In this document: positions 25,853-45,002 of the stretch, piece by piece
Position numbering within the stretch: position 1 is the stretch's first letter
Layout of the letters: each line of letters begins with the position of its first letter
Source: an uncultured Planctomycetales bacterium
GTDB lineage: Bacteria; Planctomycetota; SBBH01
Assembly: GCA_964455625.1 (NCBI GenBank)
Contig: CAYVXZ010000005.1
Location: forward strand, 9,632 to 73,631
Length of the DNA stretch: 64,000 nt
Direction: 5' to 3'
Position numbers and translations under genes: made by a program
The notes under the pieces: generated by a model
The model's input: the letters and a program-made list of their open reading frames with translations, nothing else
The model's database searches: none
Told to the model about the DNA's origin: nothing

Positions 25853-26121
25853 CCGATTCCCCGCGTACTTTCCCGCGTCTCGGCCTCGCCGCCACCGCTG
25901 CGGCCGGGATCGCCCTCTGCCTCCATGTCGGGGTCGGTTGGCTGGACGCCGGGCGCCCGCAACTCCGGCCGACCGGGCATCTGTCACTGGTTGCCGCCGC
26001 CGCCTGGATCTCCGCGACGGTGCCCGCCCTCCTCTTCGCGCTCCTCGAACGGAGGAACCGGGCCTGGTCCCTCGGTGTGCTGGGGGTCTGCCTGGCCGGT
26101 CACCTTCTCATTCTTCGTTGA
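25849..26121 (+). CDS. small hypothetical membrane protein
   Basis: 90 aa with two or three hydrophobic segments; start overlaps the GrpB stop (ATGA coupling). Confidence 0.35.
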   Translation: MTDSPRTFPRLGLAATAAAGIALCLHVGVGWLDAGRPQLRPTGHLSLVAAAAWISATVPALLFALLERRNRAWSLGVLGVCLAGHLLILR

Positions 26122-26140
26122 CGCTCCAACCGCCAGGTTT

Positions 26141-26665: not shown

Positions 26666-26685
26666 CCGCCGAGGAATAATGCAAA

Positions 26686-28385: not shown

Positions 28386-31130
28386 TTACAGCTGGTAAGC
28401 GGCGGGATCTGGCTTAAAGGGTCTTGCCAGCCACAGCGGGCGGCGGAGGTTGCCGGGGTGGACGGGCCGGGCCATCTTCATCCAACGCTGGTAGACGGCG
28501 AAGGACTTGTTGGTGTCCACGAAGACGTCGCCGTACTGGTCGGCGGGGCCCGGGAGGGTGACGGTCACCTTCTGGTGCCAGCAGTGCTGGCCGCTCAAGG
28601 GATCGGGCTGGACGGGAAAGATCAGATTCTGGTGGACGCCGGACTCGCTCCACCAGATCCGCTCGGAGTCGGGGTCGTCGCTCTTGAACGGCTTGACCCC
28701 CTCGAGCTTCCTCATCTTCCACTGTCCCGGCGCGACCTGGTCGAAGTTGACGACGGCGGTGGACCACCTCTCCCCCGCATGCCCGGGCAGGCGCCAGCGG
28801 CCCAGGTGATGCGAGCAGGCGACGATACCGGGGCGGATCGACTCGGTGACCCACGCCTTGTCGATGAAGAAGCCGATCTCGGTGGCGATCTTGAGGAGCT
28901 GGCCCGTCTCGACGCCGACGCGCTTCGCGTCCTCGGGGTGGATCCAGAGGGGGTTGGCGTGACTGATCTCGTTCAGCCACTTCGAGTTGCCGGAGCGCGT
29001 GTGGATCAGCGTCGGGAGCCGGAAGGTCGGGAGAAGCACCATCTCTCCCTTTTGGACGTCGATGTTCGACCAGTGGACCTGGCTCCGGATGTAGTTCGGG
29101 AGCATCTGGTCCTCCCACCCCCACTCCTTGAGGGTGGGCGAGTAGAACTCGAGTTTTTTCGACGGGGTCGGAAAGCCGGTGCGGGTCTTCCCCTCCACCT
29201 CGACGCCGGGGACGCCCGGTTTCACGGGGGTCTCGTGCGGACGATAGACATTTTCCTCCACCAGAAATGAGCCGTACTTCCGCATGTAGGCGAGCGGCGT
29301 CAGCCCTTCCTTCCTTGCGGCCTCCGGCAGGCCGGGGACGGAGTTCTCGAAGATCCACCGGTACTGTTCCTCGATCCGCATCTTCTGGCCCGGCTTGTAC
29401 GGCGACTCGAAGTACTTCCGGATCCCCAGGGTGCCGTCCGGGTCGATTCGCCAGGAGAGCTCGATCCAGAATTCGTCTTCTTCCCACACCTGCCCGATCC
29501 CGGCGGCCTCGTGCGCCTGCCAGGTGAGGTCGAACACCTTCCCCTGCTTTTCGAGGGCGACGCGCTGGACGGGCTGACGGAACCCGATCCAGCGGGCGGC
29601 GTGCGTCTCCTGGCTCATGAGGTCGTGCCGCTCGGAGCCCAGGCCCATCGGGAGGACGTAGTCGGCGAACTGCGCCGTCTCGCTCCAGACCGGCGTGAGG
29701 CAGGCGTGGCACTCGATCCCGGATTCGTCGGTGAGCATCTCGATCCAGCTGGCGCCGTCGGGGTTCGTCCAGACGGGGTTGTAGACGCGCGTGAAATACA
29801 TCGAGAGTTTTCCGCGTTTTTCCTTCAGGAAGTGCGGGAGCAAAAAGCTCATCTCGAAGAAGGCCAGGGGGAACTCCCGCGGCATCAGGAGCTCGCTCCA
29901 GACCTTCGGGGCCGGGGGCATGCTGTGCGGCATCGGGATCGACTTGTTGGTGTAGCTCGGGGCGGTGCCCCCCGGCGTGCTGACCGCCCCCATCAGGACC
30001 ACGATCAGCTCGAGAGCCCGCGCCACCTGCCAGCCGCCCAGATTCCCCGCGGCGGCGTTCCGCCAGATGTGGGTGGCGAGGGCCGAGCCGGCGCGGCCGA
30101 TCTCGTGCGCCACCTCGATGATCGTCGCGGCGGGGACGCGGGTTTCCTTCTCGGCGAATTCGGGGGTGTATTCGGCGTAGATCTCTTTCAGGGCCGCTTC
30201 GAACGCCTCGAACGTCTGCGGGCCGTTCGGCCGCTCGGCCTTCAGGTACTCGGGCCAGTTGACCCAGTTCTTCACGAACTCGCGGTTGTAGAGCCCTTCG
30301 CGCACCAGGATGTTCGCGATGGCGAGAAGCAGGGCCGCCTCGCTCCCCGGCCAGGTGGAGAGCCAGTAGTCGGCCATCGAGGCGGTGTTCGAGAGGCGCG
30401 TGTCGATGACGCAGAGCTTCGCCCCCTTCTCCTTCCCCTCCATGATCCGCTGGGCGTGGGGGTTGAAGTAGTGACCGGTCTCCAGGTGCGACGAGAGCAG
30501 GAGCATGAAACGCGCGTTCGCGTGGTCCGGCGACGGCCGGTCGTACCCGTGCCAGAAGGCGTACCCGGCGCGCGCCGAAGAGGAACAGACGTTCGTGTGG
30601 CTGTTGTGCCCGTCGATCCCCCAGGCGTGCAGGACCCTCTGCAGGTAGACGAGCTCCATCCCGGGGCGCCCCAGGTGGTACATGACCTCTTCGGGCTTCT
30701 TCGCGACGAGCGACTTCCGGATCCGTCCGGCGATGTCGTCCAGGACCGCGTCCCAGGTGACACGCTCCCATTTTCCGCTCCCGCGCGGGCCGACCCGCTT
30801 CAGGGGGTACGGGATCCGCTCCGGGTCCTGGATCTGGTTCAGCGTGGCGGGCCCCTTGGCGCAGGTGCGGCCGCGGCTCCCGGGGTGCGTCGGGTTCCCC
30901 TCGAACTTCTGGACCTGCAGGGTCTTTTTATCGACGTAAGAAAGGAGCCCGCAGGCGGACTCGCAGTTGAAGCAAATCGTCGGGATCAGCCAGTAGTTCC
31001 GCTCGACCTTCTTCGGCCAGGACTTGCCGTCGAGCTCCGTCCAGTCGTCCCACCGCGACGCGGGCGGAAACGACGCCAGCCCCCCGGGCGGGAGGTCGAG
31101 ATCCTTGGCGGCGGGGTTCAGGGGCTCCAT
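28386..31130 (-). CDS. molybdopterin (Mo-bisPGD) oxidoreductase catalytic subunit, Psr/Phs/Ttr-like; no recognisable Tat signal
   Basis: 914 aa; N-terminal CFNCESACGLL...GRTCAKGPA (CxxCxxxC...C-KG FeS/Mo-bisPGD motif); typical MopB size. Its start ATG abuts the stop of the upstream FeS-NrfD gene. Confidence 0.75.
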   Translation of the reverse strand: MEPLNPAAKDLDLPPGGLASFPPASRWDDWTELDGKSWPKKVERNYWLIPTICFNCESACGLLSYVDKKTLQVQKFEGNPTHPGSRGRTCAKGPATLNQIQDPERIPYPLKRVGPRGSGKWERVTWDAVLDDIAGRIRKSLVAKKPEEVMYHLGRPGMELVYLQRVLHAWGIDGHNSHTNVCSSSARAGYAFWHGYDRPSPDHANARFMLLLSSHLETGHYFNPHAQRIMEGKEKGAKLCVIDTRLSNTASMADYWLSTWPGSEAALLLAIANILVREGLYNREFVKNWVNWPEYLKAERPNGPQTFEAFEAALKEIYAEYTPEFAEKETRVPAATIIEVAHEIGRAGSALATHIWRNAAAGNLGGWQVARALELIVVLMGAVSTPGGTAPSYTNKSIPMPHSMPPAPKVWSELLMPREFPLAFFEMSFLLPHFLKEKRGKLSMYFTRVYNPVWTNPDGASWIEMLTDESGIECHACLTPVWSETAQFADYVLPMGLGSERHDLMSQETHAARWIGFRQPVQRVALEKQGKVFDLTWQAHEAAGIGQVWEEDEFWIELSWRIDPDGTLGIRKYFESPYKPGQKMRIEEQYRWIFENSVPGLPEAARKEGLTPLAYMRKYGSFLVEENVYRPHETPVKPGVPGVEVEGKTRTGFPTPSKKLEFYSPTLKEWGWEDQMLPNYIRSQVHWSNIDVQKGEMVLLPTFRLPTLIHTRSGNSKWLNEISHANPLWIHPEDAKRVGVETGQLLKIATEIGFFIDKAWVTESIRPGIVACSHHLGRWRLPGHAGERWSTAVVNFDQVAPGQWKMRKLEGVKPFKSDDPDSERIWWSESGVHQNLIFPVQPDPLSGQHCWHQKVTVTLPGPADQYGDVFVDTNKSFAVYQRWMKMARPVHPGNLRRPLWLARPFKPDPAAYQL

Positions 31131-32738
31131 CTAGCTAAGCGGGACCGATTGCCCCGCGCGGACCCACGCCTCTTCATAGAGATAAAGGCCGACGAGCGCC
31201 GAGACCGCCGCCGCCGCCGCGCCGAACGCCCCTCCCACCAGCGACAGGAGGACGAGGGGAACCGTGACCCCGAGGCCGACCCCTCCCCCCCAGAAGAGCC
31301 CCGAGAGGTGTCCGCTCCGCAGGGTCTCCGCCGCGCGCGCGGCATCCTGGCTCGGGTGCCTTCCCAGGACCTCGACCGCGAGGATCCCCCCCTGGACGAC
31401 GAGCGACCCCGAGAGAAGGAGCGAGAAGTAGCGGAGCGCCTCCGGCGAGAACCCGGAGGCGCACATGACCAGGAGGAGCGCGGCGCTGCCGGCAAGGACG
31501 GCCGACGCCAGCAGCTGCCAGAAGAGAAGCGGGCTCTGCCAGAAGTCGCGCCCCTCCGCCTGGCCGAACAGGAAGGCGCTGTAGACCGCCGCCGCGACCG
31601 AGAAGACGACCGCCGGCCAGGCAAGAAGGGCGAACCACTCGGGACGACCCAGAAAAGCGGCGGCGAGCCAGGCGGTCGCCACCCCCCCGAACCCCATCAG
31701 GATCCAGGCCCCCCAGACAAGCCACGAGCGCCAGTTCGGCTTCAGGAGGATGTAATGGAAACGGTCGGGGCGCTTGAGATCCGCGACGAGGAGAATCGTC
31801 GTCAGGGCCAGAAAGACGAGGGCCAGAAGCGGCGCCTGGATCCCGAGGAGCCGCCCAGGCTCCCAGCCGAAGGCGGCGACGCACGCCGCGGCGATTCCCA
31901 TCACCCCCGCCGCGACCGACTTGGTCCAGAGGTAGGCGGAGACCTTCCATCCCCAGGGGTTCTCCAGGTGCGGGACGTCGTAGACGGTCCGCGCCATCGT
32001 CTGGAGGTCGCGGGCGAGGTTCTCGTCCGGCGCGGCCGGTTTCGGGAAGACCGACATCCCGGTCTCGGCAAAGAGGTACGAATCCCCCCGCTCCAGCGCC
32101 TGCGGGGTGAGCGACGCCTGATCCGCACCGGTGTAAAAGACCTTGGGGCGGGTCCCCTGCTCGGGCTTACGGACCTGGGTCTGCTCGGTCCCGACGCGTC
32201 TGGCGATGTTGCTGGCCGGGTTATCCAGGTCCCCCGCCACGATCGCCTGCTCCGGGCAGACGACGACGCAGGCGGGCTCCAGCCCCACCTCCACGCGGTG
32301 CGCGCAGTAGTTGCACTTGGCGGCGGTCTGCGTGTTCGGATCGATGTAGAGGGCGTCGTACGGGCAGGCCTGCATGCACGACTTGCACCCGATGCACCGC
32401 TCCGGGTCGAAGTCCACGATCCCGTCCTTCCGGCGGAAGAGCGACGTCGTCGGGCAGATCGTCGTGCAGGGGGAATCGTCGCAGTGGTTGCACCGGAGGA
32501 CCGAGAAATACCGGCGGGTGTCGGGAAACACCCCCTTCTCGATGTACTTGACCCAGGTGCGGAACGCCCCCAGGGGGACGCCGTTCTCTTCCTTGCAGGC
32601 GACCGTGCAGGCGTGGCATCCGATGCACTTCGTGTGGTCGATCAGGAAGCCGTAGCGCACCGGCGGAAGGATAGCGGCGCGGAAGGGCCCTCCGAAGGAA
32701 AAAGCGGGGGCCCCCGCTTCCGGAGGCCCCCGCCGCAT
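31131..32738 (-). CDS. fused 4Fe-4S ferredoxin (NrfC/PsrB-like) + NrfD/PsrC-like integral membrane subunit
   Basis: N-terminal half has four Cys clusters (CIGCHACTVAC, CNHCDDSPCTTICP, CIGCKSCMQACP, CNYCAHRVEVGLEPACVVVCP). The C-terminal half has about 8 TM helices, NrfD-like. Confidence 0.75.
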   Translation of the reverse strand: MRRGPPEAGAPAFSFGGPFRAAILPPVRYGFLIDHTKCIGCHACTVACKEENGVPLGAFRTWVKYIEKGVFPDTRRYFSVLRCNHCDDSPCTTICPTTSLFRRKDGIVDFDPERCIGCKSCMQACPYDALYIDPNTQTAAKCNYCAHRVEVGLEPACVVVCPEQAIVAGDLDNPASNIARRVGTEQTQVRKPEQGTRPKVFYTGADQASLTPQALERGDSYLFAETGMSVFPKPAAPDENLARDLQTMARTVYDVPHLENPWGWKVSAYLWTKSVAAGVMGIAAACVAAFGWEPGRLLGIQAPLLALVFLALTTILLVADLKRPDRFHYILLKPNWRSWLVWGAWILMGFGGVATAWLAAAFLGRPEWFALLAWPAVVFSVAAAVYSAFLFGQAEGRDFWQSPLLFWQLLASAVLAGSAALLLVMCASGFSPEALRYFSLLLSGSLVVQGGILAVEVLGRHPSQDAARAAETLRSGHLSGLFWGGGVGLGVTVPLVLLSLVGGAFGAAAAAVSALVGLYLYEEAWVRAGQSVPLS

Positions 32739-32747
32739 GCGCCCGCC

Positions 32748-33365
32748 CTACTTGTTCTTCCGGTGCTTGATCTTCTCGCGCGCCTTCTCGCCGGCGCGGT
32801 CGTCCTTGTGCTCCTTGTGGAACTTCCTCTCGCGGTCGAGCTGCTCCTTCCCCTCGCGGCGCGTCAGGGAGCCGTCGCCGTCGGTGTCGGCCCGGTCGAA
32901 CCGCTTCCCCCCGAAAAGCCGCTCCTCGAGCGGCGTCGCCTCCGCCTTCGCCTCGGTGCGTGTCAGGCCTCCGTTCCCGTCGGCGTCCGCCCGGTCGAAC
33001 CGCTCCTCGCGGTAGCCGTCCTCGTCGGTGTACCCCTTCTTCCAGCGCTCCACCCCCTCGCGGCGGGCGTCGCCGGCCCGATGCCGGTGCTTCCGGCACA
33101 TCTCGTGGAAGCGGTGCCGCTTGATGCGACCGTTCTCGTCGGAAAACCGCTTCCACCAGGCGCGATCCGCCTCGGAGCCATCCGTCAGGCCCGCGGCGGC
33201 CGCCTCGTCAAAGGTGAGCTCTCCGTCGCGGTCGGCGTCCGTCTGGACGAACGTCTCCTCGTCCCTTGCTTCGAGCGATTCCACCTCCTCGGAACGCACC
33301 ACACTGCCGGCCAGAAAAGCCCCCGCTGCCAGCATCCATCTCCCCATCTTCCATCCGTTGCTCAT
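32748..33365 (-). CDS. secreted EF-hand calcium-binding protein, paralog A
   Basis: Start ATG at 33365 (MSNGWKMGRWMLAAGAFLAGSVV signal peptide; AAAGGA RBS). Three canonical EF loops: DADRDGELTFDE, DADGNGGLTRTE, DTDGDGSLTRRE. The track start at 33434 is a TTG lying inside the promoter. Confidence 0.8.
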   Translation of the reverse strand: MSNGWKMGRWMLAAGAFLAGSVVRSEEVESLEARDEETFVQTDADRDGELTFDEAAAAGLTDGSEADRAWWKRFSDENGRIKRHRFHEMCRKHRHRAGDARREGVERWKKGYTDEDGYREERFDRADADGNGGLTRTEAKAEATPLEERLFGGKRFDRADTDGDGSLTRREGKEQLDRERKFHKEHKDDRAGEKAREKIKHRKNK

Positions 33366-33418
33366 GACCCGTCCTTTCTGGCATGTATGCCCTTGTTTCC
33401 CCACGACGGGAATATCAA

Positions 33419-33434
33419 GCATATTCCGTGCCAA
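33419..33434 (-). promoter_or_regulatory. sigma-54 (-24/-12) promoter upstream of EF-hand gene A
   Basis: Minus strand reads TTGGCACGGAATATGC, i.e. TGGCACG-N4-ATGC against consensus TGGCACG-N4-TTGCW; about 54 nt upstream of the start codon. Confidence 0.6.
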
Positions 33435-33651
33435 TGGTCATGCCGGGTCAGAAAGCCAGGGGCGATCCGGAGAGCGCTCTGAAATCCGACAGGTGCCGGG
33501 AATACCCGCACCAAAGAGGGTAGAGGGTGTCGAGACCGCGCCGGGGACGTCAGCCAGCGGGAGTGTTCCCACGGAGGCCCAGGTCGAAGCACGAAAGATG
33601 AAGCAGCGTGGAGCAGAATCCCCTCCTCAAATTCACCATTCTCCGATTGTT

Positions 33652-34386
33652 CTATTTACCCGGCTCGCGGAGAGCCCCTATGCCATTCGCCGCGATCTCG
33701 CGGACGTTCCAGTCGGGATCCTCCAAGACAGCCTGAAGCCGATCCACCAGGAAGACCCGGAATGTCGGGTCATGTCCCTGCCGCGCGATGCTGATGAGCA
33801 CCGCCACGGCAGCCGAGCGGAGTTCCGGATCGGAATCTTCCAGGACCGGCACCAGCCGCTTCCCTTCCTCGATACGGTTCAGGATTCCGAATCCCCGGAT
33901 GGCATCCTTCCGGAATCCCGTACACGGATCGTCCAGAAACATCCCGAGCACCTCGCCGCCGGGCTCCGGCCAGCGCCCCCGCGCGGCACGGGCGAAGGCC
34001 TGAAGCGATCCGGGCCCCAACCCGGCGAACAACGCGTCCACCACTCGCGTCCATCCCGAGTCCTCCGGAGCAAGCGCAAGCGACCGGAGGCGCAGGGACG
34101 CCATGCGCATGTGGTGCCGCAAGCGGTCGCACAGGTTCCGGACCTCCGGATCCGGATCGTCCCCGGGAAGGAGCCGCGCGATCTCCGGATGGCGATTGCC
34201 CCAGTCGCACAGGCGATCGAAGGCCGTCTGGCGCGTTTGCCAGGAATCAGCCGACAACGCTCCCACTTGGGCCTTCACCGCATCGTCATGCGGAGGGGCC
34301 GGCTCGGCGATGGCGGTGAATCCCGCGAGAAAGGCTGCCGGGACGGAAAGCCGGCGGCGGCACCCGGGCCCCACTATCAGGCGCAT
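33652..34386 (-). CDS. secreted HEAT-repeat protein
   Basis: 244 aa; signal peptide; PEIARLLPGDDPDPEVRNLCDRLR, LEDSDPELRSAAVAVL, LEDPDWNVREIAANGIG are HEAT/PBS-type repeats. Confidence 0.6.
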   Translation of the reverse strand: MRLIVGPGCRRRLSVPAAFLAGFTAIAEPAPPHDDAVKAQVGALSADSWQTRQTAFDRLCDWGNRHPEIARLLPGDDPDPEVRNLCDRLRHHMRMASLRLRSLALAPEDSGWTRVVDALFAGLGPGSLQAFARAARGRWPEPGGEVLGMFLDDPCTGFRKDAIRGFGILNRIEEGKRLVPVLEDSDPELRSAAVAVLISIARQGHDPTFRVFLVDRLQAVLEDPDWNVREIAANGIGALREPGK

Positions 34387-34461: not shown

Positions 34462-36774
34462 ATGAATTATTTATGTATTATTATTGATTCATTCATTAGA
34501 ATCCCGGCCAGAGTGCCCCGCCATCCGGCCGTCACGACGTTCCTGACATCGGAATCGGATCTCCTCACCATTCTGGAGGGGAGCCCGGAACCGCTCGACC
34601 CGGTTCTGCAAGCGACGCTCGCCATCCGCCGGGCGCTCGCCGGGCTTGTCCCCGCCGAGCGGGCGAACGCGTTGGCCGCCGGGCTGGCCGAGCCGGACCA
34701 GGATCCGGAGTTGCGCCTCATCCTGCTCGCCACTTGGGCAACCCTCTCCGGCACCCGCGAGCGTCACGATGAGATGCGAGCCATCCTGCGACAGGCCCAG
34801 GGGCTCGTCGGCCGGGAAACGCCTCCCGAGCTGCGCGTCATGGTCATGCTCTGCGAGGGGTACTATCTTTCCCTGCGCGGAGACCGGCGGCGGCGCGAAA
34901 CGCTCCTCAAGCAGGCGCTGGGAACCCTGACCCGGGCCTCTCCGTGGTATCCGCGCGTCGCCTGGGAATGGGCGGTGGTCTTGGCCCAGCAAGGACGCGC
35001 GAACGAGGCGGAACCCGAGATACGGTTTCTTGATGCCAAGGAAAGCGAGTCCTTCCCGCAGGGGCGACTCGCCCTCGTGAGGTTGTTCGACGCGGTCGAG
35101 TCCGGGCGATGGCGCCAGGCCCGGGTGATGATCGAGCGAATCGACCGCGACCGCCGCACCCTCCGCCCCTGGCAGGCGCTCCTGCGGATCGCCGAACAGT
35201 ACCGGGCGCTGGCGGGCCTGGCGGATCCGAGAGGAGGCGCCCCTACCGAACCGTTCGCGCGCGAGGAGGAGGATCTTCTGCTCGTGACGCGCCATCTCCT
35301 TGCCGGACGGGCGCAGCTCGCCTTGCGCGCGGCCCTGGAGCGCCATGCGCGCTTTCCGCTCCGGTCGATGGAGGCCGGCTTCACCGGCTGGGACATGATC
35401 CGGGCGGAGCTCGCCTGCGGAAACGGGGAATCGGCCCGCCGGCTGGTTGCCGCGCGCCGAAAGCGCGGAAGCCCCCACTGGCTGGACGGGTTCTTCCTGG
35501 CCCGCGCCGAGCGCCTGGCGGGAAAGTCACGGGGGGTGGCCCGGTTGCGCGAAGCCCGCCGGGAGGCCGCCCGCCTCGGCGCCGACGGACGGTTCGAACT
35601 CGAGCTTCGACTCGCCACCGAGATCCCCCCCGGAGATCCGTTCCTTGCTGGCGTGCACCTTCAGGAAAGGAGCGTTCGTCCTGTCGGGACATCCGCTGTC
35701 GATGTCTGCGACTCCGTCATGGATCCGTTGGTCGGGACCGATCCGGAAATCGTTCGCGTCCGGGAGGTGGTCCGCCGGCTCGCTCCGCTGAAGGTGACAG
35801 TCCTGGTGACCGGCGAAACCGGAACCGGAAAGGAGCTTGTCGCGCGCGCCCTGCACGAGGCGGGGCCACGGCGGGCAAGACCTTTTGTCGCTGTCAACTG
35901 CGGTGCGATCGCGGAGGCGCTCCTCGAGTCTGAGCTTTTCGGCCACGAGAGAGGGGCGTTCACGGGAGCCGAACGGGCTCATCGAGGACTTTTCACCGCG
36001 GCGACCGGCGGGACCCTGTTCCTGGACGAAATCGGCGAGGTCTCCCCGCGCCTGCAGGCCGCGCTCCTGCGGGTCCTCGAGAATGGCGAGGTGCGTCCCG
36101 TCGGGTCGGCCGGCGCAGAGCGGATCGACTGCCGCGTCGTCGCGGCGACGAATGCCGACCTCGACCGGCTCGTCGACAGGGGCCTCTTCCGGAAGGACCT
36201 CCTCTATCGTCTGCGGCGTCTGGAGATCGCGCTCCCTCCGTTGCGGGACCGCCCGGCGGACATCCTGCCGCTGGCGCTTCACTTCCTGAACCAGGACCGC
36301 CCCACCGGACGGACCGCGACGATGACGCCGGATCTCGCCGATTGCCTGCGCGCCCATCTCTGGCCGGGAAATGTCCGGGAGCTCAAGAACCGGATCGAGC
36401 GGATGCTGCTCCTGGCCGGCGAGAAGGCGGTCTATACCCGCGAGGACTTCGACCTCGCGCCGCTCTCGCCGCGGGAGCCTGCGCCGGCCGCCAGTGCCGG
36501 CACGCCCGCGGACCCGCGCGACCCGTTGCAGGTTTTCACCGAGGGGCGGTCGACCCTGCGGCGCCGGGAACGACTGAAGGCTCTCTTCCATGAGCACCGG
36601 ATGCTCACCCGGGCAGAGGCGGTCCGCATCCTGGACGTGGCCCCCGGGACCGTCACAACGGACCTCAAGGCGCTGGCCGCGGAAGGGGTGATCGAGAAGG
36701 TGATGCCCCGCCGCGCGCCGCGGACCCATTTTTTCCGGCTTCGCACAAGGCCGTCCGACAGGATTATGAAATGA
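34462..36774 (+). CDS. sigma-54-dependent transcriptional activator (enhancer-binding protein) with ~430-aa non-canonical helical N-terminal domain
   Basis: [57 protein letters not shown]...[25 protein letters not shown]...[27 protein letters not shown] (AAA+ sigma-54 interaction domain with GAFTGA) plus a C-terminal HTH. The first 15 codons are very AT-rich, so the true start may be the downstream GTG near 34509. Confidence 0.85.
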
Positions 36775-36889: not shown

Positions 36890-39800
36890 ATGGCCATGCC
36901 CGCACATACGCTTCCCCGGACCGGTGGCATCGCCCTCATTCTGACCGCCGGCATCATGACCCTGCTCGGCCTCATGGCGGCCCTTTTCACGGGAGGCCTC
37001 CGGCTGACCTCCGAGACAGGCCACCGCCGGACGGATCAAACCCGCTCCGGGCTTGTGAGCGAAAGCGGCCTGTCGTACGCCCGATCGCGTCTCCTCGCCC
37101 GGACTGCCCCAGCGCCCGGCGCGCTTTGTCGCGGAGATGACTGGACGGCGCGTGGCGACGAGATTCCTTCCCTGTCGCCCGGACAGCTCTCGAATCCCTC
37201 CTATGCACGCGGGGAGCCGTGGCCGGATGACGGAGACGGCATCCACAGACCAGGCGAGGAGCGATCAGGCCCTGGCTGGATCGACCTAGATCGGGACGGC
37301 CGCCTCTCCGCCTGGAGCGGCCGCCTCCGGCTGGAAGCCACCCCGTTCGGCGCCCGCTTCGCCCTCCGGATCCGTTCGGACGCAGGGCTCGTTCCGGTCA
37401 ACGCGGGCGAGCTGGGAAATCCCGACGCCGATCACGACTGCGACGGGATCCCGAACCGGCTCGATCCGGAATACCATGCCTGGCTTGCGGTCAATCCGGC
37501 TCCATGGGCCGATCCGGGCGCCGGTATGAACGTTTCCCTCGTGAACCTTCTCGACAGCCTCGGCGCCCTCCTGGACATCTCGGACGCCGCGCCAGAGCCG
37601 TATACACCGGCCCTCGGAAACCGGCCTCCCACGCCGCGCCACGGCGAGATCCTCCTTTCTCGCCTTGGCCGCCGGATCGTCGCGGCGCGCCCACGCGGCG
37701 GCTACACATCGGTGGAGGAACTTCTCCCCGTCCTCGGAGCGGAAGACTACGCCAAGTCCGCCCCTTTCCTGACGGTCGCGGGAGACCGAGCTCCCCGCAA
37801 TGCCGATGTCGTCGCAGGCCACGCCGATACGGTCACCCGGGCAATGCTGGTCCGCGCCGATCAGCCGCTCATCGACCTGAACAGCGCGCCCGAGACAGTG
37901 ATCCATGCAGCCCTCCGGATCGCTGCCGCCGGGGGCCTCTATCACAACGATCCGTCCCATTACAACTGGGCAGAGGATGCCGAGTTCCAGGCGATCGTCA
38001 CCGAATCTTCCTACGTGCGGATCCTGGAAGGCGAGGCAGCCGGAATCGCCGCACTCATCGGGCAGGAGCGCCGCACCGCCCCGATCCGGAGCTGGAAGCG
38101 CCTGCTGGAGATGCTTGCGGCCTTCTCCGACGTCGCCGACGACCCCTTCACGGCCGTCGACGACCGGACCGGCCAGGCGCGAGAAACGCGCCAGCGCCTG
38201 ATCGAAGATCTCGTTCTCGCCTCTTTCAGCGCGGAAATGTTCGTCCCCGACCCGTTCTCGCGGAGCCGGGATACGCTTGAGGTCGAACGCGAAGGGATCC
38301 CGACGGGCGAGGATCTTTTGCGCGCGCGCCAAGTGCCGTCGGCGGCGCTCCTGGCGCAACAGACCGCCCCCTACAACGTCTCGGGACTGATCCCGCCGCC
38401 GGGTACCGCCGCGCAGCTCCACATGCCGGTGAACTATTTCGAACCGCCGCCGCCGGAGCCGGGCCGTCCGACGCCGGCCCACCTGAAGACCCGGCCGAAC
38501 GCCATTTTCGGCCTGGCGGGCGGGCCATGCCGGTACGACATCGAGTCGGAAGGACGTTCCGGGCCGGATCACCGGCAGACCCGGCGTTCGGCGCGGGCTT
38601 CCTGCGGCCTGCCGCTTGCGGCCTGGCGGGCGACCGGGCAGGAGGATTTCGAGATGCAGCGTCCAGCTCCGGGCTCCCCGCGCTTTTTCGAGAGGGGAGA
38701 CCTCCTCTGCGAAGGCTCCATCCCCCCCGTCAGAAACGGTATCCAAAGCCATCCCCGCTTCCCGATTTCCAGCTACACGCCCGAAGCGCTCCTGGCCGAT
38801 TTTCCGGACATGACCGACGATCAGCAGGAAAGGCTCCACGAAGCGCATGCCTGCCCCGTCCTGTGGGGAGACCTGCGGTTCGCGGCCCGTCAAGCGCCGG
38901 TCTCCGAGCTCCTCGAAACGACCCCTCCGTGCGTCTTCGCCCTGCCGTTCAACGAGGATTCCGTCCCGGGTCCCGACAATCTTTACTCACCCGACGACTG
39001 GAAGGACAACTTCGGGGATCCGACCCGCCGCCCGGAGGGGTCCCCCATGGTGCGATGTTACAGCGGCGAAGGCCGCGGGATGGCGATCGGCGGATGGGCC
39101 CGCTTCGGGCCGTGCGGCCTGCGCCTCTTCCCCCTGGCAATGGTGGGCGAAGAAACGGGCGAACCGGAGGACGGCGATTTCTTGTCGTTCCGGTGGGACG
39201 ACGGCTCGGCCCCCTGTCCGCTGACGCGCGGTGACTACCACGACTCGGACGGGTCGACAAACGTCGTCTCGGGGGGCGGGGAGATCCGGAACGCCACGAT
39301 CACATTCTCCTTTCCGGCGCGGGGCGGCGAGACGCCGGTCGCCCAGTACGGGGATACCGAGTTTACCGTCCAGTTCGAATCGCAGCCGGTTGGCGGCGCG
39401 AGCGGCGCTGGCGTCGACGGGGATGAAGGCGGCAAAGGGGGAATGGGCGGGGGAGGAAGCGGAGGCGAGGAAGAGGAAGAAGAGGAGGAAGAGATCGACC
39501 AGGAGGATATCTATTTTTCCTACCTGAAGATCCGCGTCCTGCCGGGGGACATCCTCATGCTCTCGATGCAGGACGGGAGCTCGGCCCCGGCCATGCCGCC
39601 TCCCGTGCCGTTCGCGTCGGGCCGGCGGTGGCGCCACGCGGCGGTAACGATCGACGGCGGGACGGACCCCGACGACGGCATCGCCCATGCGAGCGCCTGG
39701 ATCGACGGCGTCCTCGCGACGACCGCTCCCTTCACGCTGGATACCGGTCGCTTCCCCGCCGACAAGAAGCCGACGAGCGGCGCCCTGCGCCTCAAGATCG

Positions 39801-40267
39801 TCCAGGGTCCCCTCGACGACCTGAAGTTCTTCAACGCCACGATGAGCGCGCAGCAGATCCAGGACGAGGCGACGCGGGCGTTCCTGCGCCACGAGACGTC
39901 CGGGTCGTACCTCTCGGGCCTTCTGACCTTCGACCAAGGCCGCTTTCCCGGAGGCGCGGCGCTCACGGGCGCTTCCTGGAGCGCCTTCGCACCGGCCGCC
40001 TGCCGGGGCCCGACTGCCCCCATGACATTTACCGTGTACGCTTACGGAAATGATCCGACCGCCCCTCCCCTCGGCGAGGCGAACTTCGACTGGGACGGAA
40101 GCCCGGAGGCGCTCCAGCAAGCGGACTTCCGCCTCCCTCCCTGCCGGCATTTCCGGTGGCAGGTCGTCATGCGGTCAGCAAGCCCCGCCGACACGCCGAT
40201 CCTGGAGGAGTTCCGCGTCCACTACGCGCGGCCGGGAGCGTCCTGGACGACCTATGCCGCGGACTGA
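36890..40267 (+). CDS. giant (1125 aa) pseudopilin-like protein, paralog 2
   Basis: MAMPAHTLPRTGGIALILTAGIMTLLGLMAALF (prepilin/PilX_N-like); NPSYARGEPW, DLDRDGRLSAWSGRLR, PVNAGELGNPDADHDCDG, RPRGGYTSVEELL, IDLNSAPETVIHAAL (HhH/SAM-like as in GspK/ComEA); acidic Gly/Glu low-complexity linker; C-terminal WRHAAVTIDGG...AWIDGVL is LamG-like. Confidence 0.65.
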   Translation: MAMPAHTLPRTGGIALILTAGIMTLLGLMAALFTGGLRLTSETGHRRTDQTRSGLVSESGLSYARSRLLARTAPAPGALCRGDDWTARGDEIPSLSPGQLSNPSYARGEPWPDDGDGIHRPGEERSGPGWIDLDRDGRLSAWSGRLRLEATPFGARFALRIRSDAGLVPVNAGELGNPDADHDCDGIPNRLDPEYHAWLAVNPAPWADPGAGMNVSLVNLLDSLGALLDISDAAPEPYTPALGNRPPTPRHGEILLSRLGRRIVAARPRGGYTSVEELLPVLGAEDYAKSAPFLTVAGDRAPRNADVVAGHADTVTRAMLVRADQPLIDLNSAPETVIHAALRIAAAGGLYHNDPSHYNWAEDAEFQAIVTESSYVRILEGEAAGIAALIGQERRTAPIRSWKRLLEMLAAFSDVADDPFTAVDDRTGQARETRQRLIEDLVLASFSAEMFVPDPFSRSRDTLEVEREGIPTGEDLLRARQVPSAALLAQQTAPYNVSGLIPPPGTAAQLHMPVNYFEPPPPEPGRPTPAHLKTRPNAIFGLAGGPCRYDIESEGRSGPDHRQTRRSARASCGLPLAAWRATGQEDFEMQRPAPGSPRFFERGDLLCEGSIPPVRNGIQSHPRFPISSYTPEALLADFPDMTDDQQERLHEAHACPVLWGDLRFAARQAPVSELLETTPPCVFALPFNEDSVPGPDNLYSPDDWKDNFGDPTRRPEGSPMVRCYSGEGRGMAIGGWARFGPCGLRLFPLAMVGEETGEPEDGDFLSFRWDDGSAPCPLTRGDYHDSDGSTNVVSGGGEIRNATITFSFPARGGETPVAQYGDTEFTVQFESQPVGGASGAGVDGDEGGKGGMGGGGSGGEEEEEEEEEIDQEDIYFSYLKIRVLPGDILMLSMQDGSSAPAMPPPVPFASGRRWRHAAVTIDGGTDPDDGIAHASAWIDGVLATTAPFTLDTGRFPADKKPTSGALRLKIVQGPLDDLKFFNATMSAQQIQDEATRAFLRHETSGSYLSGLLTFDQGRFPGGAALTGASWSAFAPAACRGPTAPMTFTVYAYGNDPTAPPLGEANFDWDGSPEALQQADFRLPPCRHFRWQVVMRSASPADTPILEEFRVHYARPGASWTTYAAD

Positions 40268-43200
40268 CCGCGCCCGGACCGGCGTCGTCCTCGCACTGAC
40301 GAGCGGCCTGCTTACGGCTTTGGCGTTCGCTGTCCTCATTTTCACGCAGATCGTGCGGATCTCCGCTACTGTCCTGTCGGCCGCCTCCGGACGCGCGGAC
40401 GGGGAGCTGGCAGCCGAAAGCGGAATGCATTGGGCGGCGGGGCATCTCGCCGAAAAACCCGCCCGTTTCGACATCCCGCGAACAGCGGTCGCCCGTCCCG
40501 ACGACTGGCAGTACCGGGACGGCGCCGAGTATCGCTGGACTCCAGATGGACCTGATCCCCTCCCGGAGGACCTGCAGGAAAGCTTCAACCCCTCCTTCGC
40601 CCGCGGCGAGCCCTGGCATGACGCGGACGGAGACGGGCGTTACTCCGCGGACGAAATCTGGACGGACCTCGACGGCAATGGACGCTACACCGCCTGGAGC
40701 GGCCGCCTGCGGGGTCCGAGACCCCCCTTGGGGCATTCCTTCTCGATCCGGATCGACCCGGGCCCCTCTTCGCGCGTCAATGTCAACGGAGGGGATGTCG
40801 GGAAGCCATGGTCCGCGACCGCTCCGTGGAGGTTCAAAGGACTCCCCGCTGACTCCGGAAACGATCAGCTGGCATGCCACCTGAACCTGTTGGGAGCCTC
40901 TCTCGGGATCAGGGACTACACGATCGCGAACGTGGACAATGCTGCGATCAAGCCGGTGCTCGTCTCGGACCTGGGTGCGGAAATCCTGTCACGCCGACCG
41001 GTCGGCGGGTTCCGGTCACGGAACGACCTGGCGCGCGCCCTGATCGACGGCGGGGCGCTGACGCGCGACCAGTGGAGTCGCCTGTCGCCTCATCTGGCCC
41101 TGCACGAGACCCGGAACACCGCCGGACGGACCTGGCTCGACCTGAACGGCGCCCCGCGCGCCGTCCTGGCCTCGTTCTGGATGCACCGGAGAGGTGGGGC
41201 GACCTCCCCCTGCCTTTCCTATTCGGGTGCGGATCTCCTGATCGGCGGGACGCCGGTCTTGGACCCCTGGACACAGACCAACTGGGGTGCATCGGCCTTC
41301 GTCTTTCCGGAGGAGGCCACGACCATGGCAGACGAGATACACCTCGCCAAGCGTATGTTCGGGATGCTGGAAAGCTATCTCGAGGTCTTCCGGACGCTGT
41401 GGGAATCCCTCCAGGGTCCCGACGGGCATCTTTGTCCGGATGACCCCACGACATCAATCCCGGAGCCGGCGCTCTACGCCACCGAAAAGGCGCGGATCCT
41501 CATGGCCGCCTCCTTCCCGGACGCCGTGACGCAGAACGGATCGAGCGGCGGATCGCAGATCGGTCGCTTGATGGGGGTCCTGTCCTCGGTGGGAAGCTGG
41601 GAGTGGGACCCGGACGACATCCAGGGAAACGATGTCCTGGCCGTCAACCTCAAGACAATCCCTGAAGGAACCCGCATCATCCCTCTGGACGGCGACGGCT
41701 ACCACGAAGCCAGCCCCTATTCCGGCCTGACGGGATTCGCCGCCGTCTGGCCCGACCGGGCGCTCTGGCTGGGGCCGATCCGGGATTTCGAGGTCTCCTG
41801 CCTCGCGCACTCGATTGGCGGGACCCTGGCCGTTCGTTCGGCCGACGTCCGGATCCTCACAGGGATACATCTGAACAGCCAGGAAGATTTCGAGAACCTC
41901 GGCACGATCCGGACCGGGAGCGACCCGAATGCAGGCATCCGCCGCTTCCTGACGGATGGCGTCGAGACGGCGGGGCTTTCCCGCTACGACAGGGTCCAGT
42001 CGCTCCCCGACTTCTCGAAACGCTCGCATTGGCGGGCTGGCATGACGGGGTTCGACATGAAAGTGGGAGCCCTTACGCTTGCCGAGGCGGTACCCGATTT
42101 CCCCGCTTCCCCCGCCCCGACCGCCCAGGCGGTGATGGCCCCCCACGCGGACGGGAACGAGACCCTGGCGGGCAACTGGCTCGACACGACCTACATGGGA
42201 GGACAGGACCATGTCCGTCTCAAGGGGACCTACCCGTTCGCCGACGACGGTCCGGACGCCCTCTTCGCGCACGGGGATCCGTTCGAGATCCAGCCTTCCC
42301 AGATGGCGACCGGCACCAAACCGCTCGACAAATGCGACCCCTGCTGGACCGGCAACATACGGACCTACTTCCTCTCCCTGGACGCCTCGGACGGCATCCC
42401 GGCGCCGCTGCGAAGCGGCCCTCCTCCCTGTCCGGCCTCCAGTCCCCACTCCGACCTCGCCCGGATGTGGCAGTCGGGCGGAATCGAGGCATGGGTGGAT
42501 TTCACCGGCGGGACCGTCTGGGAAGCGAGCGCCGACTTCGACTTCGGGCCCGGCCTTCTCCTTCCGCAGTCGCTGACGCTCTCCCGCGGAGAGACCCAGT
42601 ACTTTCTCGAATGGCGGTACGAGATCCCCGTTGTCTGGGAGGACCTGAACGGATCCCGGGTGGTCGATCCGGGCGACACCTACTGGATCGCTTCCAGCAA
42701 CACCGGCGACAACCGCATCGCCTGGGATATCCCGACCCGCGGCGTCCCGTGGGTCCGTCCGCTTCCGGACCACCTGGTCGTCGAATGGCAGACGCTCCGC
42801 TACGTCCCGAACCGGGGGAACCTGGATGCGCTGGAGATCCGGACGCGTCTCCGGATCGTCCTGAACGGCTCCGTTGTCCACGACGCGGTGCACACGTTCA
42901 ACCAGGACTTGCAGGGAACAGCCCCCTTCGTGCCTATCCTGTCGAGGCGGATCGCGGCCGACGGCCGCTTTGACTCCCAGCTCGCGATCAAGTGCTACGC
43001 CGATCAAGTAGCACTCTATAACGGCTTCGGCGCCGGGGACTTCCGGACAGCAAATCCACGTCCCTGCCGGGACCGATTCGAGCGGCAAGGATGGTACGAA
43101 TCGCCGCTCCACGTCCTTCCGCAAACGATGCGCCCGCTCTGGGCTGCCTGGACCGGCGTTGCCTCCGAGCAGATGCGCGTGTCGGCCCCGCAAGCGATGC

Positions 43201-43460
43201 GGTGCCGGCTGTCCCTCTACGCAGACGCGACGGGAAAATCCGGGCGGACCGATGAGCTCGCGGGGCGCGGCGGCGAGCGGCTCGACGGCCTTCCGGCGCG
43301 CTCGTTCCGGTTCAGGGTCGACTGGGACATCCCGGACGACGACGCACTCCGGGACGCACCGAGCGGTCAGGGAGGAACCGGTGCCTTCGTCAACCCGCCC
43401 GTCTTCGAGGACCTGTGGATCGCCTTGGCCGGACGGCCTCAATGGAACTTCTGGAAGTAA
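40254..43460 (+). CDS. giant (~1068 aa) pseudopilin-like protein, paralog 3 (translationally coupled to paralog 2)
   Basis: Start ATG at 40254 overlaps the paralog-2 stop by 14 nt. MPRTDRARTGVVLALTSGLLTALAFAVLIF; NPSFARGEPW, DADGDGRYSADEIWTDLDGNGRYTAWSGRLRG, VNVNGGDVG, LSRRPVGGFRSRNDLARAL, WLDLNGAPRAVLASFW; C-terminal LRIVLNGSVVHDAV. Confidence 0.65.
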   Translation: MPRTDRARTGVVLALTSGLLTALAFAVLIFTQIVRISATVLSAASGRADGELAAESGMHWAAGHLAEKPARFDIPRTAVARPDDWQYRDGAEYRWTPDGPDPLPEDLQESFNPSFARGEPWHDADGDGRYSADEIWTDLDGNGRYTAWSGRLRGPRPPLGHSFSIRIDPGPSSRVNVNGGDVGKPWSATAPWRFKGLPADSGNDQLACHLNLLGASLGIRDYTIANVDNAAIKPVLVSDLGAEILSRRPVGGFRSRNDLARALIDGGALTRDQWSRLSPHLALHETRNTAGRTWLDLNGAPRAVLASFWMHRRGGATSPCLSYSGADLLIGGTPVLDPWTQTNWGASAFVFPEEATTMADEIHLAKRMFGMLESYLEVFRTLWESLQGPDGHLCPDDPTTSIPEPALYATEKARILMAASFPDAVTQNGSSGGSQIGRLMGVLSSVGSWEWDPDDIQGNDVLAVNLKTIPEGTRIIPLDGDGYHEASPYSGLTGFAAVWPDRALWLGPIRDFEVSCLAHSIGGTLAVRSADVRILTGIHLNSQEDFENLGTIRTGSDPNAGIRRFLTDGVETAGLSRYDRVQSLPDFSKRSHWRAGMTGFDMKVGALTLAEAVPDFPASPAPTAQAVMAPHADGNETLAGNWLDTTYMGGQDHVRLKGTYPFADDGPDALFAHGDPFEIQPSQMATGTKPLDKCDPCWTGNIRTYFLSLDASDGIPAPLRSGPPPCPASSPHSDLARMWQSGGIEAWVDFTGGTVWEASADFDFGPGLLLPQSLTLSRGETQYFLEWRYEIPVVWEDLNGSRVVDPGDTYWIASSNTGDNRIAWDIPTRGVPWVRPLPDHLVVEWQTLRYVPNRGNLDALEIRTRLRIVLNGSVVHDAVHTFNQDLQGTAPFVPILSRRIAADGRFDSQLAIKCYADQVALYNGFGAGDFRTANPRPCRDRFERQGWYESPLHVLPQTMRPLWAAWTGVASEQMRVSAPQAMRCRLSLYADATGKSGRTDELAGRGGERLDGLPARSFRFRVDWDIPDDDALRDAPSGQGGTGAFVNPPVFEDLWIALAGRPQWNFWK

Positions 43461-43476
43461 ATCCGGCTCAACAAAA

Positions 43477-43513
43477 GCCGGCGGGGACGCCGCTGAACGG
43501 AGCCCCCGCCGGC
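43477..43513 (-). terminator. GC-rich hairpin between convergent genes; intrinsic terminator for the EF-hand B transcript
   Basis: Perfect 10-bp inverted repeat GCCGGCGGGG...CCCCGCCGGC with a 17-nt loop. On the minus strand it is followed by CUUUUGUUG. No U-tract on the plus strand. Confidence 0.5.
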
Positions 43514-43527
43514 CGTCGCTTCGGGTC

Positions 43528-44112
43528 CTACTTGTTCTTCCGGTGCTTGATCTTCTCGCGCGCCTTCTCGCCGGCGCGGTCGTCCTTGTGCTCCTTGTGG
43601 AACTTCCTCTCGCGGTCGAGCTGCTCCTTCCCCTCGCGGCGCGTCAGGGAGCCGTCGCCGTCGGTGTCGGCCCGGTCGAACCGCTTCCCCCCGAAAAGCC
43701 GCTCCTCGAGCGGCGTCGCCTCCGCCTTCGCCTCGGCGCGGGTCAGGCCGCCGCTCCCGTCGGCGTCGGCCCGCTCGAACCGCTCGCTGTTGCGCTCCGG
43801 GTCCCCGTACGCCTTCTTCCAGCGATCGGTCCCCTGGCGGTGCCTGCGGCACATCTCGTGGAAGAGATGGCGCTTCAGGCGCCCGTTCCCGTCGGAGACC
43901 CGCTTCCACCAGGCCCGGTCGGCCTCGCAGCCGTCGGTGAGGCCGGCCGCGGCCGCCTCCTCGAACGTGATCTCCCCGTCCTTGTCGGCATCGGTCCGGG
44001 CGAACGTCTCCTCGTCCCCGGCGTCGATCGACTCCACCTCTTCGGCCCGGACGCCCCCTCCGGCGAGGCATCCCGCGACCAGGATCCATCCCATCATCTT
44101 CCCGCTTTCCAT
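43528..44112 (-). CDS. EF-hand calcium-binding lipoprotein, paralog B
   Basis: Start ATG at 44112 (MESGKMMGWILVAGC, lipobox-like; AAAGGAAA RBS). Three EF loops: DADKDGEITFEE, DADGSGGLTRAE, DTDGDGSLTRRE. The 3' 213 nt are identical to paralog A. Confidence 0.8.
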   Translation of the reverse strand: MESGKMMGWILVAGCLAGGGVRAEEVESIDAGDEETFARTDADKDGEITFEEAAAAGLTDGCEADRAWWKRVSDGNGRLKRHLFHEMCRRHRQGTDRWKKAYGDPERNSERFERADADGSGGLTRAEAKAEATPLEERLFGGKRFDRADTDGDGSLTRREGKEQLDRERKFHKEHKDDRAGEKAREKIKHRKNK

Positions 44113-44166: not shown

Positions 44167-44183
44167 GCATTTCCCGTGCCAAC
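44167..44183 (-). promoter_or_regulatory. sigma-54 (-24/-12) promoter upstream of EF-hand gene B
   Basis: Minus strand reads TTGGCACGGGAAATGC (TGGCACG-N4-ATGC), the same architecture as the promoter of paralog A. Confidence 0.6.
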
Positions 44184-44273
44184 GATCATGCCTGGCAGGG
44201 AAACACGAAACGGTCCTGATACTGTCCTGGAATCCTACGATTGCCGGAAAATACCCCGGCTGGCCGGGGGGCG

Positions 44274-45002
44274 TCAGCCGGCGCGGGCCAGGACCTCGCG
44301 CGAGGGGCCGTCGTCCACGATCCGGCCGTCCACGAGACGGATCACCCGGTCGGTGCGGGCCGCCATGTGGGGGTCGTGCGTGACGACGACGATCGTCTGG
44401 CGCTTCTCCCGCGCGAGACGCTCGAAGATCTCGAAGACGCGGTCGGAGTTCTTCGTGTCGAGGTTTCCGGTCGGCTCGTCCCCCAGGACCACGAGCGGGT
44501 CGTTGGCGAGGCTCCGGGCGATCGCGACCCGCTGCTGCTCGCCGCCGGACAGCCTCTCCGGGATCCGGTCGAGCTTGTCCGCGAGGCCGAAATCCGCCAG
44601 GAGCGCCGTCGCGCGGGCGCGCGCCACGGCCGCGGGGACCCCCGCCTTCGCCATCGGCATCATCACGTTCTCGAGCGCGGTGAACTCGTGCAGGAGGTAG
44701 TGGAACTGGAAGATGAACCCGAGCTTGCGGTTCCGGAGCTCCGACAGCCCCTCCGATGAAAGACCCGAGATCCCGGTCCCGTCTACGAGCACCTCTCCCG
44801 ACGTCGGGCGGTCGAGCGCCCCCAGGAGGTACATCAGGGTCGACTTCCCGCTACCCGAGGGGCCGATGATCGCGCAGAACTCGCCGCGGCGGATCGTCAG
44901 GTCGATCCCGTGGAGGATCTCGTTCGCGGCCTCCCCGGTCCCCAGGGTGCGCTTGAGCGCGCGCGTCGCCAGGGCCGGCGCTTCCGCCTCCGGCGGCGTC
45001 AC
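44274..45002 (-). CDS. ABC transporter ATP-binding protein (LolD/MacB-type)
   Basis: GTG start at 45002; EILHGIDLTIRRGEFCAIIGPSGSGKSTL...LSGGEQQRVAIARSLANDPLVVLGDEPTGNLD. Confidence 0.85.
   Translation of the reverse strand: MTPPEAEAPALATRALKRTLGTGEAANEILHGIDLTIRRGEFCAIIGPSGSGKSTLMYLLGALDRPTSGEVLVDGTGISGLSSEGLSELRNRKLGFIFQFHYLLHEFTALENVMMPMAKAGVPAAVARARATALLADFGLADKLDRIPERLSGGEQQRVAIARSLANDPLVVLGDEPTGNLDTKNSDRVFEIFERLAREKRQTIVVVTHDPHMAARTDRVIRLVDGRIVDDGPSREVLARAG

Follow-up and report, generated by a model that had tools for sequence, protein, structure and literature searches.

Two EF-hand genes, EF-A and EF-B, lie on the minus strand of the 64-kb stretch of DNA that was analysed here as a whole and is called the window (G+C content 68%). 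Their 3' ends are identical, and a block of four genes separates them. How did two genes that differ over most of their length come to share the same end, and what does the shared end mean for the genes that it brackets?

Both proteins are recognized by Pfam (PF13405 with 39-42 bits at a cut-off of 25; PF00036 with 36-42 bits at a cut-off of 25.4). EF-A contains three canonical EF-hand loops, and its N-terminus resembles a signal peptide; the DxDxDG...E loops DADRDGELTFDE, DADGNGGLTRTE, and DTDGDGSLTRRE are present in the translation. The EF-hand proteins are hence predicted to bind calcium. The comparative evidence rests on four Logan contigs, of which those of the three closest EF-hand relatives (L001, L002, and L004) were informative. 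We call a sequence A-type if it resembles L001 and L002 and B-type if it resembles L004; this typing rests on three orthologs in a family for which only six sequences exist. The two genes and the two copies of the shared end are as follows:

32748..33365, minus strand: CDS of EF-A, 205 aa (P0001); Pfam EF-hand_6 with 39 bits and EF-hand_1 with 36 bits, above cut-off
43528..44112, minus strand: CDS of EF-B, 194 aa (P0004); Pfam EF-hand_1 with 42 bits; groups with the L004 ortholog at 100% bootstrap
32747..32956, minus strand: identical tract, copy A (probable recipient of a conversion); exact match to 43527-43736; B-type sequence
43527..43736, minus strand: identical tract, copy B (probable donor); exact match; EF-B is B-type over its whole length

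Limits and reality of the identical tract

The shared end is an exact direct repeat of 210 bp in the 64-kb window (32747-32956 = 43527-43736) with an offset of 10,780 bp. Its edges are set by mismatches at positions 32746 and 32957, which places the limits at 32746/32747 and 32956/32957. Each copy comprises the final 209 nt of the CDS, including the TAG stop codon, and 1 nt past TAG. The original prediction had placed an identical tract at the 3' ends of two minus-strand EF-hand genes, about 10.8 kb apart as direct repeats around a block of genes, and the exact match as well as the offset bear this out. The length of 213 bp (32745-32957) given there was slightly too large, as that interval holds both mismatches.

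Outside the tract, 83 of the 377 aligned CDS sites differ between EF-A and EF-B, which corresponds to 78% identity, lower than the roughly 85% that had been estimated for the 5' halves. Additional indels of 24, 3, and 3 nt occur in this part. Compared with 0 differences at 210 sites inside the tract, the difference is highly significant (Fisher's exact p = 4e-18). Upstream of the CDS, the identity drops to 61%. Overall, the two loci are alike over about 800 nt (32707-33507 vs. 43483-44256).

An identity of this kind may be suspected to stem from a collapse or mis-join of two diverged copies during assembly, since the window lies on an NCBI contig of 227,781 nt from an uncultured-type lineage and a 210-bp repeat needs read pairs to be resolved. 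We therefore consulted independent assemblies, namely the Logan contigs (k = 31) of three runs of the same organism (SRR8109491-93). These match the region, i.e., the block and both flanks, at 99.98-100% identity and break exactly 30 nt (k-1) within the tract at four of four junctions. At copy A, L009, L010, and L011 end at 32927, and L023 starts at 32776; at copy B, L009 starts at 43556, and L024 and L025 end at 43707. Breaks k-1 inside the tract at all four junctions mean that the tract is truly shared sequence, and an assembly artefact is hardly credible. Exact look-ups of the EF-A (P0001) and EF-B (P0004) proteins recovered no contig, in keeping with the break that the tract causes in both genes at k = 31.

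Alternatively, an extreme constraint at the nucleotide level, such as an embedded RNA or an overlapping element, could hold the last 210 nt identical in the absence of recombination. Conservation across the family is indeed high in the centre of the gene, where a stretch of about 100 nt is nearly invariant. In the stretch that corresponds to the tract, however, L001 and L004 differ at 39 of the 210 sites, with an ortholog dS of 0.15-0.40, so constraint does not explain the identity. Moreover, the window contains no Rfam families, and the tree of the tract conflicts with that of the rest of the gene (see below). We regard this explanation as next to impossible.

A chimeric EF-A and the direction of transfer

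For the comparison with the relatives, winA denotes the EF-A locus and winB the EF-B locus. In the middle segment of the gene, winA is 94% identical to L001, 90% to L002, and 80% to winB, and the identity of winB to L004 is 96%. Within the tract, the one sequence common to winA and winB matches L004 at 95.7%, L001 at 84%, and L002 at 80%. Neighbor-joining trees agree with these values. The 5' and middle parts, i.e., the 5' two thirds, group winA with L001 and L002 at 96% bootstrap and winB with L004 at 100%, and the tract groups winA, winB, and L004 at 100%.

The identities of the flanking genes give the species grouping ((window, L004), (L001, L002)). When winA is left out, the EF-hand tree equals the species tree, and hence winB, L004, L001, and L002 relate to each other as single-copy orthologs would. 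The odd one out is winA, which sits with the other clade. Outside the tract, each of the two EF-hand copies is closer to its orthologs in other species than to its partner in the window.

The position of the switch was followed with diagnostic sites, at which L001 and L002 agree and L004 differs. In winA, 14 consecutive sites up to column 592 are A-type, the sites from column 638 to the stop codon are B-type, and those downstream of the stop codon are A-type again. In winB, the diagnostic sites are B-type throughout. As judged from these patterns, EF-A is a chimera with A-type 5' two thirds and a B-type 3' third. Since only winA is chimeric and winB is B-type throughout, the transfer was apparently non-reciprocal and went from B to A.

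Synonymous divergence places the two copies in time. Outside the tract, the paralogs have a dS of 0.65, a dN of 0.20, and an omega of 0.3, which indicates that both copies are old and that both are under purifying selection. The ortholog values (dS of 0.29 for winB-L004 and 0.43 for winA-L001) are both below that of the paralogs. In the tract, there are zero differences in 69 codons. A recent segmental duplication should have left uniform near-identity, and this candidate fails on the 78% identity of the CDS outside the tract, the 61% upstream, and the dS of 0.65. The original prediction had left the choice between recent gene conversion and a recent duplication junction. Conversion agrees with the conflicting trees (96-100% bootstrap), and a recent duplication is contradicted by the dS of 0.65.

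Very probably, therefore, the 3' end of EF-B was copied over the 3' end of EF-A in a recent, non-reciprocal, ectopic gene conversion. The starting state would have been two long-diverged EF-hand cassettes in direct repeat, 10,780 bp apart. The conversion likely began in the nearly invariant central stretch, which supplies perfect homology for strand exchange, and would have ended shortly after the stop codon, where the similarity of the two loci breaks off. The protein of the resulting chimeric EF-A would be A-type in its N-terminal two thirds and B-type in its third EF-hand loop and its basic tail. For tuf genes, conversion tracts were found experimentally to run until bounded by the gene (PMC5485169), and the 3' limit of the present tract at the end of likeness agrees with that finding.

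Beyond the 3' end of the tract, the two loci share hardly any homology, apart from a terminator arm of 10 nt about 20 nt further on. Such poor homology is awkward for a classical two-ended conversion and fits a one-ended or crossover-associated event too. An identical pattern would also result from a duplicative insertion in which the resident 3' end was used again; the weighing of this alternative requires the genes between the two copies and their occurrence in the relatives.

The block between the copies and its occurrence in relatives

On the basis of codon-position G+C and Pfam, reading frames were assigned in the whole region. Along the minus strand, the gene order is HlyD-FtsX-ABC, EF-B, giant 2, giant 1, activator, HEAT, EF-A, Fer4-NrfD, and molybdopterin oxidoreductase. 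The four block genes and the flanking genes are:

33652..34386, minus strand: block gene 1, HEAT-repeat protein, 244 aa; Pfam HEAT_2 and HEAT; GC3 of 0.78
34462..36774, plus strand: block gene 2, predicted sigma-54-dependent activator (bEBP), 770 aa; Pfam Sigma54_activat with 217 bits; GAFTGA motif
36890..40267, plus strand: block gene 3, giant protein 1, 1125 aa (gene call)
40254..43460, plus strand: block gene 4, giant protein 2, 1068 aa, convergent with EF-B (gene call)
44274..45002, minus strand: upstream flank, ABC-transporter ATPase (Pfam), last gene of the HlyD-FtsX-ABC set; collinear in L001, L002, and L004
about 31131..32660, minus strand: downstream flank, Fer4-NrfD fusion (Pfam and NCBIfam), with its true start after the terminator of EF-A
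28386-31130: molybdopterin oxidoreductase, next after Fer4-NrfD

Hence, the HEAT protein, the sigma-54 activator, and the two giant proteins that had been described as bracketed by the EF-hand genes are all present. Only the HEAT gene is on the minus strand; the activator and both giants are on the plus strand.

HEAT protein: A search of 5.8 billion proteins returned no homolog of this protein but itself.

Activator: The N-terminal domain comprises 415 aa and is unannotated. Searching with it gave a single relative with 32% identity in an unrelated context.

Giant proteins: Giant 2 is paralogous to giant 1 over the N-terminal 340 aa or so (BLASTP, 33% identity, E = 6e-25). The family of giant 1 has 181 representatives and gave only sub-threshold Pfam matches, to T2SSK and Laminin_G_3. 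NCBIfam held nothing for the giant proteins, and giant 1, the only giant that was searched against PDB sequences, had no match there. We thus note an unannotated protein family of about 1,100 aa with faint GspK and LamG signals.

The comparison with related genomes for which the original prediction had called gave both states of the locus and came out in favour of the prediction. On L001 and L004, a single EF-hand gene lies between the same ABC-transporter and Fer4-NrfD flanks without the block, and L002 carries the block; sites without it thus occur. The layout of L001 is FtsX-ABC-LysE-EF-(Fer4-NrfD), matching window positions 47134-44266 and 33399-31140. That of L004 is PEMT-HlyD-FtsX-ABC-PALP-EF-(NrfD start), matching 49153-44274 and 33511-32353. 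In L002, ABC-EF is followed by giant 2, giant 1, and the activator in opposite orientation, and the contig is collinear with window positions 44544-36012 at 78% identity. About 25 nt of the EF-NrfD spacer are kept in L002 between its terminator and giant 2. On the near side, which is the one assembled, it looks as if the L002 block was placed between a single EF-hand gene and NrfD. In a second genome scan, with the Fer4-NrfD alignment, the best match was 64% identical and belonged to a Planctomycetales MAG.

The block-less genomes have a different extra gene between ABC and the EF-hand cassette, LysE in L001 and PALP in L004, and neither has a homolog in the window. Together with the presence or absence of the block, these different extra genes mark the spot as a hotspot of gene flux. 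Both clades have the block, one in the window and the other in L002, and at about 78% identity the two versions differ to a similar degree as the core flanks. Accordingly, the block may be old and have been lost twice, which seems likelier than a recent arrival.

These data bear on the duplicative insertion, in which the tract would be the junction of a recently inserted foreign segment, consisting of the block and the A-type 5' two thirds of an EF-hand gene. One join would lie just after the stop codon of the resident EF-B, and the other would have formed by homologous recombination with the conserved EF-B core of a sister chromosome, duplicating the 3' 210 bp. The tract stopping exactly at the end of homology, 1 nt past the stop codon, fits this proposal, as do the grouping of the 5' part of winA with the other clade (L001/L002), the absence of the block from the closest relative L004, and the GC3 of the block genes (0.78-0.82), which is below that of the flanks (0.90-0.96). 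However, the block stands next to the ABC-EF flank in L002 too and has diverged there to the same extent as the core flanks, so it is old in this lineage group and not newly arrived. The lower GC3 recurs in L002 (block genes 0.87-0.92, flanks 0.93-0.98) and is thus a property of the genes, not a mark of recent arrival, and EF-A itself has a host-like GC3 of 0.90. In addition, the scheme requires two joins on different chromatids, of which one would be illegitimate and the other homologous. We judge it unlikely.

A Campbell-type integration can be considered as well. Here, a circle with an A-type EF-hand cassette and the block would have entered the resident B-type gene by a single crossover. 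This directly yields direct repeats around the block and, on the NrfD side, a chimera with an A-type 5' part and a B-type 3' part, as in EF-A. On the ABC side, it predicts the opposite chimera (B-type 5', A-type 3'), but EF-B is B-type throughout, and its 3' part matches L004 at 95.7%. The identity of the tract would still call for a later conversion, and we consider this route very unlikely. The assembly artefact, the nucleotide-level constraint, a recent whole-cassette duplication, and a simple Campbell-type integration were rejected on the evidence given for each.

Returning to gene conversion as the preferred reading, the event would have had a consequence for the block. A perfect repeat of 210 bp within about 800 bp of 78% similarity should be a substrate for RecA-type unequal crossing-over, through which the 10.8-kb unit would be lost or doubled. 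Its loss would leave a B-type EF-hand gene of full length directly beside the Fer4-NrfD flank, as in L004 except for PALP. A crossover in the tract as the origin of the L004 layout is consistent with the data but unproven. The recombination pathway and any past or future deletion are likewise read from the arrangement of the sequences and are put forward as likely rather than as observed events.

The EF-hand cassettes and their parallels in known systems

Each EF-hand gene appears to be a self-contained cassette that consists of a conserved dyad, a predicted sigma-54 promoter, the CDS, and a terminator. The original prediction had spoken of an EF-hand operon, which is at odds with two stand-alone genes that each have their own predicted sigma-54 promoter and terminator. 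The elements are:

33485..33500, minus strand: dyad CCCGGCACCTGTCGGA bordering cassette A on its 5' side; candidate site for activator binding
33419..33433, minus strand: predicted sigma-54 -24/-12 box TGGCACGGAATATGC, 53 nt upstream of the EF-A ATG; exact match
32703..32734, minus strand: predicted intrinsic terminator after EF-A, with a 14-bp stem and a T-run
44233..44248, minus strand: dyad TCCGGCAATCGTAGGA bordering cassette B on its 5' side
44167..44181, minus strand: predicted sigma-54 -24/-12 box TGGCACGGGAAATGC, 54 nt upstream of the EF-B ATG; exact match
43463..43492, minus strand: terminator-like hairpins after EF-B

Promoter: A sigma-54 promoter was called on GG and GC elements with -24/-12 spacing in a TGGCAC-N5-TTGC-like sequence at a suitable distance to the start codon. 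The pattern TGGCACG-N4-ATGC has only two exact matches in the 64-kb window, with 0.12 expected by chance. Its GG and GC elements are invariant in seven of seven family loci, including L005 and L006, which have a different genomic context. Transcription of the EF-hand cassettes may thus depend on sigma-54. A relaxed search ahead of the giant genes and the HEAT gene gave no convincing sigma-54 promoter, and the window genes that were scanned with Pfam did not include rpoN.

Dyad: A dyad of the type TCCGRCA-N2-TGYCGGA occurs with 0-3 mismatches at the same relative position in winA, winB, L001, L002, L004, L005, and L006, and may be bound by an activator. A bEBP is encoded between the two EF-hand copies (PF00158, 217 bits); the block-less relatives nonetheless keep the promoter and the dyad. 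Hence, the cognate activator may be encoded elsewhere.

Terminator: A hairpin downstream of the EF-hand gene is conserved in L001, L002, and L004.

Family: Among 5.8 billion proteins, the EF-hand family consists of the two window proteins and four close relatives with 63-77% identity. The EF-hand alignment found zero relatives in 185,579 GTDB species genomes and only two distant ones (29-35% identity) in a scan of JGI metagenomes. These searches show the family to be very rare. Among PDB sequences, the calmodulin C-lobe matches best (E = 0.005), and an AlphaFold2 model of EF-A from six sequences had a pLDDT of 55.5, too poor for a fold search.

The mechanism is known, ordinary bacterial recombination and not a new one, and its documentation is unusually clean. 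The locus provides a clean natural case of partial gene conversion between diverged bacterial paralogs, with an identifiable donor and recipient and base-exact limits. A short converted tract would here have created a perfect repeat that may later remove or amplify a 10-kb accessory block, and conversion would explain how gene type was uncoupled from gene position in a small EF-hand family. In practice, the repeat breaks short-read assemblies at predictable points and can mislead the orthology assignment of EF-hand genes. The rare secreted EF-hand family with its conserved sigma-54 promoter and dyad, and the giant-protein family, are probably the more interesting leads.

As a speculation, to which we give only a small chance, the EF-hand cassettes could serve as portable homology arms for the repeated gain, loss, and exchange of the activator/giant GspK-like block among related species. 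Block-less genomes of the L004 type would then be deletions by crossover in the converted 3' tract, and the activator would join both cassettes in a single calcium-responsive sigma-54 regulon that serves a novel apparatus for secretion or at the cell surface.

EfhP and CaBP: The EF-hand proteins resemble EfhP of Pseudomonas aeruginosa (PMC4053335, PMC9132961) and CaBP of Caulobacter (PMC13171946), which are likewise small proteins with an N-terminal export signal and canonical 12-residue EF-hand loops. Beyond the loops, a sequence relationship is undetectable, and the likeness is one of general design. Unlike EfhP and CaBP, the window family has three loops, a lysine-rich tail, and a sigma-54 promoter and is very rare.

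Integrative genomic islands: The presence or absence of the block among relatives, its slightly deviant codon composition, and the flanking direct repeats recall such islands. In contrast to them, the window has no tRNA genes, the four block genes contain no integrase, transposase, or relaxase domains according to Pfam, and the repeats are functional gene cassettes instead of att sites.

Direct-repeat deletion and amplification: As with rrn operons, IS copies, and paralogs, homologous segments in the same orientation bracket 10 kb of variable accessory genes. The difference is that no deletion or amplification variant was observed for the window organism, and the extra LysE or PALP gene of the block-less relatives is not predicted by a simple repeat-mediated deletion.

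tuf genes and rRNA operons: The closest parallels are tufA/tufB of Salmonella and the rRNA operons. These show non-reciprocal transfer between dispersed copies and concerted evolution (PMC5485169; see also PMC8022953, PMC6053082). The hallmarks are shared with the window: a sharp identity tract, conflict between the trees of tract and flank, and a limit at the end of homology. The EF-hand genes are accessory and not essential, unlike tuf and rrn. While the tuf and rrn copies are near-identical over their full length through frequent conversion, the EF-hand copies are 22% diverged and have been homogenised only in their 3' third, which speaks for one recent event and against sustained concerted evolution.

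Promoters of the EF-hand genes

Two sequence elements precede each of the window's two EF-hand genes:

33419-33433 and 44167-44181, sigma-54 -24/-12 boxes
33485-33500 and 44233-44248, dyads TCCGRCA-N2-TGYCGGA

The box is kept by all members of this rare EF-hand family, namely the window pair and the related genes on contigs L001, L002, L004, L005, and L006. The dyad is found at the same loci, 52-90 nt upstream of the box. As both elements are also present in members with an unrelated genomic context and in members without an adjoining activator gene, the family appears to be under sigma-54 control, and its activator is possibly encoded elsewhere.

Flanking genes and gene turnover

The following genes lie after EF-A, one of the two EF-hand paralogs, nearby, or next to the EF-hand cassette in relatives:

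28386-32738, minus strand, Fer4-NrfD fusion and PhsA/Psr/Ttr-like molybdopterin oxidoreductase, after EF-A
48252-49649, SelA gene, nearby
L001:2865-3503, LysE-family exporter gene
L004:4893-5810, PALP/cysteine-synthase-like gene

The longest Fer4-NrfD ORF (start 32738, the choice of the gene callers) overlaps the EF-A terminator. Because conservation with L001 begins only at residue 28, the real start probably lies near 32660, at the GTG codon for the V that opens the conserved VRYGFLIDH.

In each of L001 and L004, which lack the block between the window's EF-hand genes, an extra gene separates the ABC ATPase gene from the EF-hand cassette. These are different genes (LysE and PALP, respectively) and neither has a homolog inside the 64-kb window, which marks the intergenic position as a hotspot for gene turnover.

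Directly downstream of the molybdopterin oxidoreductase gene, a patch at 26000-28000 has a G+C content of 0.54-0.62 vs 0.68 window-wide and is probably a small foreign insert. It holds two ORFs:

26141-26665, minus strand, ORF6N-domain gene
26686-27264, low-GC ORF of 192 aa

Elsewhere, a cluster at 10501-15521 and 16643-19606 (both minus strand) encodes large DUF4350/ABC_transp_aux-like proteins of 859 and 814 aa, followed by genes for HEAT- and TPR-containing proteins.

Genes of the block

33652-34386, minus strand, HEAT-repeat gene, adjoining EF-A
34462-36774, plus strand, sigma-54 activator gene
36890-40267 and 40254-43460, plus strand, giant protein genes, a paralog pair with N-terminal similarity

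A search of 5.8 billion proteins with the HEAT-repeat protein returned only the self-match, and its gene has the lowest GC3 of the region (0.78). Hence, it may be young or fast-evolving. The N-terminal domain of the activator (415 aa) gave no match in a Pfam search; the one relative that could be detected (L012) shares 32% identity with it and occurs in an unrelated context.

The giant proteins are paralogs, with 33% identity along the first ~340 residues. Judged by eye, their N-terminus is pseudopilin-like in appearance. Their family, which is unannotated and comprises proteins of ~1,000-1,200 aa, numbers 181 representatives in a search of 1.84 billion proteins. Of eight members scanned, four share a sub-threshold match to T2SSK (GspK) near residues 255-320, and a sub-threshold Laminin_G_3 match near the C-terminus is likewise seen in 4/8.
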